From: Leucoraja ocellata
Taxonomy: Eukaryota
Direction of reading: 5' to 3'
Assembly (NCBI GenBank): GCA_036785375.1
Contig: JAWMAR010000076.1
Location: 7,998,001-8,062,000 of the forward strand
DNA: 64,000 bases
Shown piece by piece: positions 44,701-46,343 of the stretch (positions are counted from its first letter, which is position 1; every line of letters starts with the position of its first letter). The position numbers and the translations under genes are program-made. The notes below the pieces were generated by a model, which saw only the letters and a list, made by a program, of their open reading frames with translations, was not told the origin of the DNA and did not search any database.

Positions 44701-46343
44701 TTCTCACCCGTATGTGACAACTCAACAGATTCTTATTTTATTTCAGTTGAAACCAAGACCAATACAGAACCGGCCCCCAATGTCACTATGGTAAGTACCA
44801 GACATAAATACAAACTACTGGAGCAACTCGGTGGGTCAGGCAGCATCTGCGGAAAGAAATGGACAGGCGACATTTTGCCCATGCTTTAATTGAATGCCAT
44901 CACTTCCTTTTTAGACCTATACAAGCCATCTCAGGTTTACCAATGTCCACCTTACACTCTTACATATGAACAAGCTTCCATAAATATCATTATATTCAAA
45001 GTCTTACGTACATACATCACGTTCATTCCTGTGACTAGTGATGTGTCACAGGGTTCGGTGCTGGGCCCGTTACTGCTTGTCATGTACAGCAATGATTTGG
45101 ATGAGAACATACAGGGCACGATTAGCAAGTTTGCTGATGATACAAAAGTTAGTGGTTTTGCAGATAGTGAAGATGGTTGTGAAAGATTGCAGCAGGATCT
45201 GGATCGATTGGCCATGTGGGCGGAGGAATGGTTGATGGAATTTAATACAGAGAAGTGTGAGGTGTTGCATTTTGGGACATCGAACTAGGGTAGGACCTAC
45301 ACAGAAAATGGTAGGCCTCTGGGTAGTGTTGTAGAGCAAAGGGATCTAGGAGTACAAGTGAATGGTGCCATAAATGTTGAGTTGCAGGTAGATAAGGTGA
45401 TCAAAACAACTATTGTCACTTTGGCCTTCATCAGAGAGATTATTGAGCATAGAACTTGGGAGGTCATGTTGCAGTCAAGACGTTGGTGAGACCGCATTTG
45501 GAATATTGTGTTCAGTTCTGGGCACCATGTTATAGGAAAGATGTTGTCAAGGTTGAAAGTGTTCAGAAAAGATTAACAAGGATGTTGCCAGGACTAGAGG
45601 GTGCGAGCTATAGGGAGAGGTTGAGTAGGCTGGGTCTCTATTCCATGGAGCATAGGAGGATGAGCGGAGATCTTGTAGAGGTATATAAAATCATGAGTGG
45701 AATAGATCGGGTAGATCCACCATCTTTTACCCAAAGTAGGGGAATTGCGGACCAGAGGACATAGGTTCAGGTTGAAGGAGAAACAATTTAATAGGAATCC
45801 AAGGGGTAACTTTTTCATACAGAGGGTGGTGGGTGTATGGAACAAGCTGCCAGAGGAGGTAGTTGAGGCTGGGACTATCCCATTGTTTAAGAAACAGTTG
45901 GACGTACATGGATAGGATAGGTTTGGATGGTTATGGACCAAGGGCAGGCAAGTGGGACTCGGGTAGATGGGACATTGTTGGCTGGTGTGGGTGAGTTGGG
46001 CAAAAGGGCCTTTTCCACACTGTATTACTCTATGCTTATAACTAGTTTGCTCTTTTTTCCCCTTTTGGTAAATGTTCTTTCTTGTTCATCTTATATGTTT
46101 TTGATGCCATTCATTATAAACTGTGATGGTATGGAGTGATTTTGCGTATTTTCTGACTGATGGACAAAATCGGCTTATAGATTCAGCATTCTCTTGTGTC
46201 ATTTACATTTTGTTTTTCTATTGCAGTCGGCAGAACCGGAGATACTCTATGCTGATATTCAGTTTGTACGACAGAATGCCAAAGCTCCAACCTTAGAAGT
46301 CAGCGAGGAGACAACTGAATATGCTGCCATCAAACGTACATAA
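14353..46343 (+). CDS. Spliced Ig-superfamily type I receptor: 6 VJ-type V domains + TM + ITIM/ITSM tail (SIRP/NITR-like inhibitory receptor); leader exon not located
   Basis: Exons 14353-14703, 16429-16773, 18574-18921, 28391-28735, 31740-32087, 38463-38807, 40426-40573, 42345-42388, 44747-44790, 46227-46343. Each has an AG acceptor and all but the last a GT donor. Intron phases 1,1,1,1,1,1,2,1,0 are compatible. Sum 2435 nt, giving 811 codons plus stop once the split leader base is added. Confidence 0.88.
15110..15930 (+). repeat. GC-rich non-coding dispersed repeat (probable non-autonomous retroposon)
   Basis: Shares CCTACCTGGTCGGAGAGG..TCCTCGCGGCCTACC..CAGCTTCGGCAGCGGCACAGCGCTGG with 1690-2520, 24925-25830, 33276-34180; AATAAA near the 3' end. 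Confidence 0.75.
16429..16773 (+). CDS. Exon V2: Ig V-set domain (type A)
   Basis: ctttcaag|[57 protein letters not shown]; donor gtgagt; 345 nt. Confidence 0.93.
18574..18921 (+). CDS. Exon V3: Ig V-set domain (type B)
   Basis: cacacag|[49 protein letters not shown]; donor gtaagt; 348 nt. Confidence 0.93.
19927..20886 (+). CDS. gag: DIRS Gag-like ORF1 (N-terminus from ATG 19658 probably separated by a frameshift near 19878)
   Basis: 319-aa ORF upstream of pol; its stop overlaps the pol start (ATGA at 20883-20886). Confidence 0.75.
   Translation: MRQLLEQMLEQEMQARHLQGGRALASSKPSPHPSVPSLFEVSKGGQDWAGLSQGQADDCASMPGELEEEELLGVVSRYAAPPRTGRMLEPRMAASINRLSNKPLQEKVLQEALDTYTAPENCEALRVKTVNGQIWSQLGQHIRTQELKMQRILKLHTAAITAFARSTENVELTTPQQDLLALMCNTQYELNNLRRENIRPALNPKYAGLCKAPAPEKEALLFGADLRKRLKELEEAAKPVGRMRAGPGPSRVKTPSWQHASASTSRYRAGESLVTASHYPQSSFLERGPERSRGKIRRPTTAPTRTPSGQTHHRRRSQK
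20883..22823 (+). CDS. pol: DIRS reverse transcriptase / RNase H / methyltransferase-like ORF
   Basis: 646 aa; DIKDAY, LPNGL, YLDD; TDAS and INYLEMLA (RNase H); DLFASRLN and YAFPPF (DIRS methylase-like domain). Confidence 0.95.
   Translation: MNMEVGGSGSCQHTQTKGVVLTGGRLRFFKHVWCSITNNKFILNSISGYKIEFKPGIEPPVQHIPQRVFLPTELEKVEGQAELDRLVSKGIIERARHEPLEFVSNIFIRTKKDGGCRIIIDLTSLNQSVEYQHFKMETFVTARQLISKGYFMASIDIKDAYYLVPIHKDHFRYLKFIWMGQLWQYRALPNGLTTAPRLFTKILKVAMKKLREQKHLVMAYLDDVLILGRTRELAVAGVLATKQLLETLGFVLHPDKSVLKPTTNMDYLGFTIDSIRMTVTLPRDKKAALAEACNNLITKTQPKIRHVARVIGSIVAAFPAEQYGPLHYQNLQRARTHALRQSRGHYDRTMDLPAEAISELQWWVDNIWHSYSPIAVTNPNIVITTDASALGWGATNSISSTGGRWTNSEASLLQSLGINYLEMLAAFYGLKAYAFDMRYVHVRLMIDNTMVVTYIQHMGGIKSVSCDKLTTIIWQWCVERHIWLSAAYLPGKLNTVADTRSRKFNDNIEWMLDPKIFARIVKQYGTPDIDLFASRLNHQLPMYVAWEPDPEAAAVDAFTLDWGNFFFYAFPPFCLISRVLQKIQADSASGILVVPDWPTQPWFPVFHDMVVESPMVFHSHPQLLTHPVSGISHPCHQNLKLLVCRF
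22841..23794 (+). CDS. DIRS tyrosine recombinase (first ATG 22871)
   Basis: [15 protein letters not shown] (HxxR), AGW, FRKFY catalytic signature. Confidence 0.93.
   Translation: MGLSERTITTMSASLRVSTKKQYLTYIKKWEQYCLDAGTSYKTASITDVLEFLAHLHHDQKMSYSAVNAARSALSAYLMPTGHHSIGSHPLVIKLLKGIYNTKPPTPRYTHVWDISVVLSHLRGWPPVGSLSLEQSTLKTLMLMALVSAQRVQSLHQLRLDNMVTTPDCITFTMPGLVKQSRPDMPNSPLIFRAYPPEPRLCVVTHLYNYVDTTHTLRGSEKASWVSHKKPFGRVTSQTISRWLKQVLKAAGINTDVFKSHSIRAASTSAAERMEVPIDHILSTAGWSRESTFRKFYHKPLMEKDLLADKILESANL
24485..27065 (+). mobile_element. 5'-truncated CR1 LINE (copy A), interrupted by GC-rich element 24925-25830
   Basis: [43 protein letters not shown]-like tail. Confidence 0.9.
27066..27214. repeat. ~150-bp imperfect palindrome of Penelope terminal-repeat sequence (duplicate at 37141-37286)
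   Basis: GAAGGTACACAAAAATGCTGGAGAAA...AACGTTTCGAAACGTT...TTTCTCCAGTATTTTTGTGTACCTTC. Confidence 0.88.
28391..28735 (+). CDS. Exon V4: Ig V-set domain (type A)
   Basis: cccattaaag|TT GCA AAT; near-identical to V2; donor gtgagt; 345 nt. Confidence 0.92.
30093..31248 (+). mobile_element. Internally deleted Penelope-like element with 13-bp TSD
   Basis: [10 protein letters not shown] and [19 protein letters not shown] motifs joined to the terminal repeat; CCAAGTATAACAT at 30080-30092 and 31249-31261; single-copy empty site near 18107. Confidence 0.85.
31740..32087 (+). CDS. Exon V5: Ig V-set domain (type B)
   Basis: cacacag|AT CCC; near-identical to V3; donor gtaagt; 348 nt. Confidence 0.92.
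32836..37140 (+). mobile_element. 5'-truncated CR1 LINE (copy B) with nested GC-rich element and nested younger CR1
   Basis: Duplicate of 24485-27065 plus insertion 34498-36219. Confidence 0.9.
34498..36219 (+). mobile_element. Younger 5'-truncated CR1 LINE nested in older CR1
   Basis: RT ORFs 34489-35082 and 35165-35899 (FADD); (TTTCTATG)n tail; AACAT on both flanks; absent from copy A near 26145. Confidence 0.9.
38463..38807 (+). CDS. Exon V6: membrane-proximal Ig V-set domain (type A, distinct J end GTKMIVT)
   Basis: cccattaaag|TT GCA AAT; ends GGA ACC AAG ATG ATT GTC ACT A|gtaagt; 345 nt. Confidence 0.92.
39095..39770 (-). mobile_element. Penelope-like element fragment (N-terminal ORF region)
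   Basis: [27 protein letters not shown]; homologous to 30250-31050. Confidence 0.8.
40426..40573 (+). CDS. Transmembrane exon
   Basis: ttttcag|[58 protein letters not shown]; donor GG|gtgagt; uncharged TM followed by KK; absent from the ORF track. Confidence 0.9.
40707..41000 (+). mobile_element. V-SINE (HE1-type)
   Basis: GGTTCGATTC B-box, V-domain, (CTAAA)n tail. Confidence 0.75.
41352..41636 (-). mobile_element. V-SINE (HE1-type)
   Basis: Reverse-complement V-domain and head. Confidence 0.75.
42345..42388 (+). CDS. Cytoplasmic exon 1 ([14 protein letters not shown])
   Basis: tttcactag|G AAC TCT...ACA G|gtaaaa; 44 nt, phase 2-1 bridges its neighbours; contains YxxV. Confidence 0.75.
43995..44610 (+). 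mobile_element. V-SINE interrupted by two LINE 3'-end fragments
   Basis: Head 43995-44165, resumes ~44415 and ~44565; nested (GACTT)n-tailed and (CATAGAAA)n-tailed fragments. Confidence 0.65.
44747..44790 (+). CDS. Cytoplasmic exon 2 ([15 protein letters not shown])
   Basis: tattttatttcag|TT GAA ACC...ATG|gtaagt; 44 nt, phase 1-0. Confidence 0.75.
45025..46035 (+). mobile_element. CR1 LINE 3' fragment in last intron
   Basis: QGSVLGP, FADD, RPHLEYC motifs. Confidence 0.88.
46227..46343 (+). CDS. Terminal exon with ITIM (ILYADI) and ITSM (TEYAAI)
   Basis: tttctattgcag|[50 protein letters not shown]. Confidence 0.9.
   Translation, partial: SAEPEILYADIQFVRQNAKAPTLEVSEETTEYAAIKRT

Follow-up and report, generated by a model that had tools for sequence, protein, structure and literature searches.

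A candidate paired-receptor family of cartilaginous fish with tandem sigma-2-like VJ domains and ITIM/ITSM or ITAM tails

Cartilaginous fish have few characterised families of polymorphic inhibitory and activating receptors, and a survey reports no homologues of the leukocyte receptor complex (LRC) type in sharks (PMC4016189). In this work we analysed a window of 64,000 nucleotides of Leucoraja ocellata DNA (GenBank assembly GCA_036785375.1, contig JAWMAR010000076.1, here C76, positions 7,998,001 to 8,062,000, forward strand), which carries a gene, hereafter the skate gene, for a receptor whose tail has an ITIM (immunoreceptor tyrosine-based inhibitory motif) followed by a switch motif (ITSM). 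We consider it probable that this gene stands on the inhibitory side of a family of paired receptors in cartilaginous fish, and that its ectodomain comes from a germline-joined VJ exon of the immunoglobulin (Ig) sigma-2 light chain. The described systems closest to it are SIRP-alpha, the sigma-2 chains, PD-1, CEACAM1/CEACAM3 and the receptors with non-rearranging VJ exons.

SIRP-alpha has a V-C1-C1 ectodomain, and SIRPA adjoins PDYN, the SIRP locus lying beside NSFL1C and PDYN. The skate receptor resembles it in its J-bearing V domain, its uncharged transmembrane (TM) span and its YAD(I/L)...TEYA(A/S)I pair, which has the spacing of 24 residues of the first SIRP-alpha tyrosine pair; both families have paired activating relatives and, possibly, paralogous chromosome blocks. 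In contrast, the skate receptor has six V domains and no C1 domain, and a single tyrosine pair with an NxVYxxV site where SIRP-alpha has two pairs (a tail of four tyrosines, with LTYADL in the second pair; PMC5413580); its V domains are nearest to Ig sigma-2, its activating partners have their own immunoreceptor tyrosine-based activation motif (ITAM) and no charged TM residue, and its locus is a PTK2B/GULO block and not that of NSFL1C and PDYN. On these grounds (no C1, one pair, another locus) we do not count the receptor as a member of the SIRP family. As the V domains moreover group with Ig sigma-2 in our best trees, the kinship with SIRP-alpha or PD-1 implied by an earlier, sequence-only reading of the window is not supported.

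The sigma-2 chains (sigma-cart, type I or NS5) have the closest V domains, a split leader and, in skate, V and J in one exon. Unlike them, the skate family has tandem V domains, a membrane anchor with a signalling tail, a third complementarity-determining region (CDR3) fixed at six residues and a separate locus; the V-domain type is that of sigma-2, and the VJ-C cluster with its C1 exon and secreted chain is missing. The tail is like that of PD-1 in its ITIM and ITSM, its xEYAxI form and the alanine following the phosphotyrosine (pY+1), as in cartilaginous-fish PD-1, whereas PD-1 has a single V domain, another ITIM consensus and no multigene paired cluster. PD-1 has been identified elsewhere in sharks and skates (PMC11599192, PMC12151841). 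Membership of PD-1/CD28 was rejected: the CD28 family is defined by a single extracellular V domain (PMC11599192) where the skate receptor has six, and ILYADIQF and TEYAAIKR stand against (I/V)(D/E)Y(A/G)(E/V)L(D/E)F and (T/V)EYATIx(F/Y), the second motif being a partial match only (PMC12151841). CEACAM1 and CEACAM3 offer a parallel arrangement, in which an ITIM/ITSM member is accompanied by others that have an intrinsic ITAM, their diversifying N-terminal domains being matched (PMC5112662). The CEACAM ectodomain is unrelated, the skate family using VJ domains of the antigen-receptor type. The NITRs of teleosts combine a V and an I domain with ITIM tails and are encoded by clustered genes. Like UrIg/UrIg2 and NCR3, they share non-rearranging VJ exons with the skate family; UrIg differs in having C1 domains and in sitting in the major histocompatibility complex (MHC) or an antigen-receptor complex, and NITR membership was rejected since the skate receptor is a V-only array and NITR-like V domains form their own clade. 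No MDIR name occurs among the 110 relatives described below, exons that look like CD300/pIgR lie on other contigs (MDIR, CD300 and pIgR-like receptors being marked by CD300-type V domains), and the gene model contains no C2 exon of the kind expected for a CD33-related Siglec, which has a V-C2 ectodomain with a sialic-acid-binding arginine.

The skate receptor and its tyrosine motifs

The skate gene, as modelled, has 11 exons and encodes a type I receptor of 827 amino acids (aa); all joins are canonical (AG/GT) and no stop interrupts the frame. A split leader is followed by six single-exon VJ domains, the TM span and a tail (window positions unless a contig is named):

C76:7989164-7989212, plus strand: leader exon, 8.8 kb upstream of the window (gene model)
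14353..14703, plus strand: V1 (type Va), end of the leader and N-terminal single-exon VJ domain, hypervariable, likely ligand-binding
16429..16773, plus strand: V2 (type Vb), single-exon VJ domain
18574..18921, plus strand: V3 (type Vc), single-exon VJ domain
28391..28735, plus strand: V4, Vb copy, 96% identical to V2
31740..32087, plus strand: V5, Vc copy, 97% identical to V3
38463..38807, plus strand: V6, Vb copy, membrane-proximal
40426..40573, plus strand: stalk, uncharged TM span and start of the tail
42345..42388, plus strand: cytoplasmic exon 1 (44 nt) with NPVYSTV, Y770
44747..44790, plus strand: cytoplasmic exon 2 (44 nt), spacer
46227..46343, plus strand: terminal coding exon
46242..46259, plus strand: ITIM ILYADI, Y797 (motif scan, gene model)
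46314..46331, plus strand: TEYAAI, ITSM consensus, Y821 (motif scan, gene model)

The domain order is Va-Vb-Vc-Vb-Vc-Vb, repeat copies being 96–97% identical. Every V exon contains its own J-like G strand, and no recombination signal sequence (RSS) was found at any V exon of the gene. Pfam detects V-set and no C1-set domains in the receptor, and a sigma-2 C query finds no match in the 110 relatives nor in the 1.04 Mb around the gene. That the six-V array might be an assembly artefact was considered and rejected, as all six exons recur on a second contig (C5), where the introns between them differ in length; this copy is likely the other haplotype or allele of the skate gene.

The terminal exon is AG-bounded, of phase 0 and in frame, and holds the ITIM, the ITSM and the stop codon. 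Y797 and Y821 lie 24 residues apart, these and Y770 are the only tyrosines of the 82-aa tail, and the TM span contains no charged residue. The sequence-only reading had listed ILYADI and TEYAAI at this spacing, a PVYSTV in the exon 42345–42388, a TM span free of charge and a tail of about 82 aa, all of which the gene model bears out, and the SIRP-alpha pair ITYADL/TEYASI at spacing 24, which it had cited, matches a peptide printed in PMC5589908 (both motifs appear in PMC5413580 as well). It had called PVYSTV, which lies at 42367–42384, non-canonical; the family form NxVYxxV is conserved, and the site fits the ITSM consensus (TxYxxV) in 14 of the 35 relatives examined.

By itself the motif pair is ordinary, and its bare pattern counts as weak evidence, being present in 8 of 100 Markov-shuffled windows and matched three times, once spuriously, in the 214 kb around the gene. 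The paired motifs are nevertheless confirmed, because they lie in the terminal exon and are conserved: both tyrosines, the +1 alanine of each, the +5 phenylalanine and an upstream glutamate are invariant in 14/14 aligned relatives in which the spacer varies. The last 117 aa of the receptor are identical at 111 positions to the little-skate RefSeq model XP_055495050.1. Among the 35 relatives, alanine stands at pY+1 in 33 and glutamate at pY-1 in 31, and the -2 residue of the ITIM is cysteine or methionine in 14. In a poly-A RNA run, the bins of cytoplasmic exon 1 and of the terminal exon have a depth of 1–2 and the flanking intron bins a depth of 0, and one RNA contig matches 46248–46428. Two RNA results count against the gene as modelled, namely that none of its exon joints is among the best 15 of 403 read joints (reads over 42250–46800, swamped by repeats, the TM exon lying outside that stretch) and that a second, raw run has depth 0 on the exons.

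The AlphaFold model of a two-V relative shows both V domains, a helix for the TM span and a tail that is disordered, and the folds nearest to it are antibody V domains (Z 19.4, root-mean-square deviation 1.3 over 113 residues). PDB sequence and fold searches returned only antibody and T-cell receptor (TCR) V domains; SIRP is absent from the listing, which does not exclude it. The tail has no PDB match. V1 lacks the usual pairing residues of the Q38/P44 type, has a short C-C' loop and finds VNAR-like proteins as its nearest Atlas clusters, which hints that it could be an unpaired single-domain binder. For the whole receptor the Atlas leads were TIGIT-, MPZL1- and BTLA-like. The V3–V4 intron contains an open reading frame for a tyrosine recombinase (Pfam Phage_integrase, 22817–23791), with a diverged second copy at about 47300–49400 on the minus strand, presumably from a DIRS-like element; the C5 copy has about 4.9 kb less sequence in this intron, a difference that points to an insertion polymorphism.

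The family and its paired gene cluster

A V6 query against longer proteins yielded 110 relatives, 109 of which have shark, ray or skate names and one a gene identifier only, and a profile search added chimaera members, making the family chondrichthyan. No relative outside cartilaginous fish was found among the best 150 profile matches, a tail search returned seven proteins, all elasmobranch, and a tail profile gave no significant non-family match among 133 new proteins. RefSeq names of the family are automatic, SIRP-alpha-like being the name of 4 of the 110. An inhibitory-type tail is present in 44 of the 110 (spacing 24 in 35, spacing 23 in nine), 21 have a YxxL-x7-YxxL/I ITAM in its place, and 39 are partial, soluble or have another tail. 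Strict consensus is less frequent: an ITIM in 21 and an ITSM in 33 of the 44, and both together in only 20, a count that weighs against the inhibitory reading. Six of the 110 (P0072, P0076, P0078, P0089, P0094 and P0100) have a third tail class, seen in sharks, with two YxN motifs 23 residues apart, which we take to be of the Grb2 type. We found no published description of the family in a literature search of incomplete coverage, so that it may have been mentioned elsewhere.

On C76, about 280 kb hold three ITAM genes and two inhibitory genes, the skate gene and the next one. The three ITAM genes, which lie upstream, end in split exons with the joined reading YMDL-x7-YGH(L/I) and have ectodomains closely similar to that of the inhibitory gene; one of them has a truncated V exon, and not every one need be a complete gene. 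The N-terminal V domain is under diversifying selection. The ratio of non-synonymous to synonymous differences (pN/pS) of the Va exons is 2.04 overall, 3.25 in the CDR-like loops and 1.24 in the framework, in a set of eight distinct exons (a divergent pair was left out) that are non-independent and come from one animal, which tempers this result; the ratio is 0.63 for 16 Vb and 0.58 for five Vc exons. The codon bootstrap of pN-pS runs from 0.007 to 0.078 for Va, excluding 0, and spans zero for Vb. In addition, V1 appears to have been exchanged between inhibitory and activating genes: the tail exons of the C5 copy have 0–2 mismatches each and are about 99–100% identical to those of the skate gene, and yet its V1 is 81.7% identical to that of the skate gene and 90.8% identical to that of an ITAM gene, identities that we take as a sign that the two arms have traded sequence.

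A cluster in which inhibitory genes lie with activating ones of similar ectodomain, together with diversifying selection and apparent exchange in the N-terminal domain (eight sequences, one animal), is the pattern of paired receptors. A checkpoint or self-recognition receptor had been proposed before; its inhibitory part is likely, whereas self-recognition fits less well than a pathogen-driven paired receptor, given the diversifying selection on V1. The cluster thus offers a conserved candidate with a defined, fast-evolving binding domain, whose ligand and cell type become testable.

Some 430 kb further on (C76:8533425-8560400) lies a further gene of the family, in which two VJ domains precede a single low-complexity exon of 1988 codons rich in Asn, Gly, Ser and Glu, a TM span and a short tail, with a counterpart in the Rhinoraja protein P0058 (1999 aa); it may be a decoy or adhesion form on a very long stalk.

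Origin of the V domains

The ectodomain probably arose from an exon of the Ig sigma-2 light chain in which V and J had been joined in the germline. With the V profile of the family, VJ-C light chains score 87–115 bits, one such cluster including the named horn-shark Igsigma-2 chain, and the best non-family matches in the skate genome are sigma-2 VJ exons that are joined in the germline and have a sigma-2 C exon downstream (79–104 bits). Scores are lower for lambda (62, at most 63), Ig heavy chain (37–59), TCR (37–48) and SIRP-like V (28). The mean identity of V1–V3 is 37–44% to sigma-2 versus 21–24% to a lungfish SIRP-like V, the best single-domain PDB matches of which are SIRP-alpha. V-segment trees join the family to sigma-2 with supports of 90/86 (73 rows) and 96/87 (43 rows), the approximately unbiased (AU) test rejects a light-chain clade that leaves the family out (p=0.0017), and NITR-like rows, so labelled by our own reading of unnamed proteins, form a separate clade (98/93). 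The CDR3 equivalent has six residues in 272/272 parsed family domains and in the chimaera proteins, compared with 8–12 in four sigma-2 chains, and this fixed length points to a single joined founder. Several features of the trees weigh against this origin. They rest on 98 columns, the support in the 73-row tree is not starred, the 43-row tree was obtained by dropping 30 near-duplicate or long-branch rows, and SIRP is represented by one lungfish SIRP-like protein only. The AU test also fails to reject a clade of the family with SIRP-like V (p=0.34) or a clade of all rearranging receptors without the family (p=0.11), so that descent from sigma-2 is a proposed direction. Several outgroup labels are our own reading of automatic or absent names.

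All of the skate's type I (sigma-2) genes are joined in the germline (PMC2192082), as they are in gar, coelacanth and turtle (PMC5985310), whereas those of the horn shark are split, germline joining by RAG-like activity being documented in sharks (PMC2193156). Lee et al. (2000) suggested that novel receptors could arise from Ig genes that had been rejoined, and stated that no direct example was then known (PMC2193156). We tentatively propose that the skate gene belongs to an undescribed paired innate family of chondrichthyans, more than 400 million years old, in which a germline-rearranged sigma-2 VJ exon was domesticated and its tandem copies were fused to ITIM/ITSM or ITAM tails. If so, the family would be a direct example of the idea of Lee et al., and its members would be candidate natural killer or myeloid recognition receptors of sharks.

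Single-exon VJ receptors have long been debated as relics from before RAG or as products of germline rearrangement, a question on which this V domain bears, which its link with sigma-2 makes testable by phylogeny and to which either answer would be informative. It is unlikely, in our view, that the VJ exon, with the same inhibitory function, is an unsplit relic predating the RAG transposon, like UrIg or NCR3, that is close to the sigma-2 ancestor and not derived from sigma-2. Such a relic would fit the rearranging-receptor clade that the AU test leaves standing, a family older than the chimaera split, the joined sigma-2 genes of skate, gar, coelacanth and turtle, and V exons with no RSS found. 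Against it, the sister group of the family is one particular light-chain isotype, C1 is missing, and the locus is a PTK2B/GULO block and not the MHC or an antigen-receptor complex, the location of UrIg and UrIg2; the documented germline joining in sharks and the lack of a relative outside cartilaginous fish among the best 150 profile matches also speak against a relic. No octamer was found within 600 bp upstream of three family leaders, and none upstream of skate sigma-2 either, which makes this comparison uninformative.

It is less likely still that the gene is an ohnologue of the SIRP locus, arisen by whole-genome duplication, with a tail homologous to the first SIRP-alpha pair and a V domain that has diverged or been replaced by Ig exons, and that it senses self in a CD47-like manner. 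The genes that flank it in 1.04 Mb are NDK, a GULO-like oxidase, nicotinic receptor alpha2/4, ZNF395-like, PAG-like, PAQR, MCM, stathmin, TRIM and PTK2B, the last told from FAK by 108 versus 83 bits; the other paralogue names are presumptive, resting on the human 8p21/6p12 block. This block, through its stathmin, nicotinic receptor alpha2/4 and PTK2B genes, fits chicken chromosome 3, on which STMN4 and PNOC lie together and which forms a paralogon with chromosome 20, where STMN3 lies, PDYN being on human chromosome 20 (PMC2865548). This likeness, the near-identical motifs and spacing, the four automatic SIRP-alpha-like names and the AU result of p=0.34 are what a SIRP relative would show. However, the receptor has no C1 domain, one pair and not two, and low V identity to SIRP-like V; its tail finds elasmobranch proteins only and, as a profile, no significant match beyond the family; PD-1, BTLA and Siglecs all have tyrosine pairs of a like kind (PMC12151841, PMC5413580), and a hypervariable V1 is ill-suited to a conserved self ligand. 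The SEP-domain genes of the skate genome are on other contigs (C904, C14 and C667), with no V exon in 10 kb beside one of them, and a lungfish SIRP-like single-domain query of the genome found no SIRP and only weak matches to other V types. The 1.04 Mb yielded no opioid motif, a separate search for an opioid precursor was uninformative, and a survey that dates SIRP to tetrapods also dates PD-1 to mammals and hence under-detects (PMC13262535). The locus is therefore not the SIRP locus; the tail possibly shares ancestry with SIRP through whole-genome duplication, and such ancestry of the tail alone could be reconciled with a V domain derived from sigma-2. In a lungfish protein (P0133, 704 aa, automatic name 'turtle-like'), six SIRP-like V domains stand in tandem and C1 is missing, which makes it a parallel case of a V-only array.

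Proposed signalling and neighbouring features

We propose that the variable N-terminal V domain, projected on five conserved spacer V domains, would be the site of ligand binding. Phosphorylation of Y797 and Y821 would fall to a Src-family kinase, and SHP-1 or SHP-2 would then be engaged by the phosphorylated pair through both of its SH2 domains, thus damping activation. The neighbouring ITAM paralogues, with near-identical ectodomains, would signal oppositely, and exchange of V1 would keep both arms matched under pathogen pressure. Docking of SHP-1 or SHP-2, which the sequence-only reading had put forward, is likely in view of the conserved motifs, the SIRP-alpha spacing and the adjoining ITAM paralogues, qualified by the strict ITIM seen in only 21 of the 44 inhibitory-tail relatives. 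When phosphorylated, a SIRP-alpha peptide with its tyrosines at this spacing activated Shp2 in vitro (PMC5589908). PMC12151841 regards pairs of the ITIM/ITSM type as one combined motif, reports that alanine at pY+1 promotes SHP-1 recruitment in PD-1, and holds that glutamate at pY-1 speaks against a SAP switch; SAP switching would thus be unlikely in the skate receptor, which has this glutamate. Least probable of all is a tail without net inhibitory action, which would bring in SHP-2 or adaptors to serve adhesion, endocytosis or activation on cells outside the immune system. In its favour, the ITIM -2 residue varies as noted above, expression is barely seen in RNA reads and SHP-2 can act positively (PMC5589908); against it, the ITAM partners, the selection on V1 and the sequence exchange form an immune paired-receptor pattern, and pY+1 alanine favours SHP-1 in PD-1 (PMC12151841).

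Other features were noted in passing. About 30 kb from the cluster (C76:8143135-8143890, minus strand) lies an exon of a PAG/LIME-like transmembrane adaptor, with a weak Pfam PAG match and possibly a third paralogue, and an open reading frame with a signal peptide and no Pfam match lies between the GULO-like and nicotinic receptor genes (C76:7806042-7807565). A separate cluster of V exons that look like CD300/pIgR, possibly MDIR, is present at C70:4.71-4.92 Mb and on C1141, and a V exon with a PPP motif that looks like the CD28 family is present at C276:1058984.

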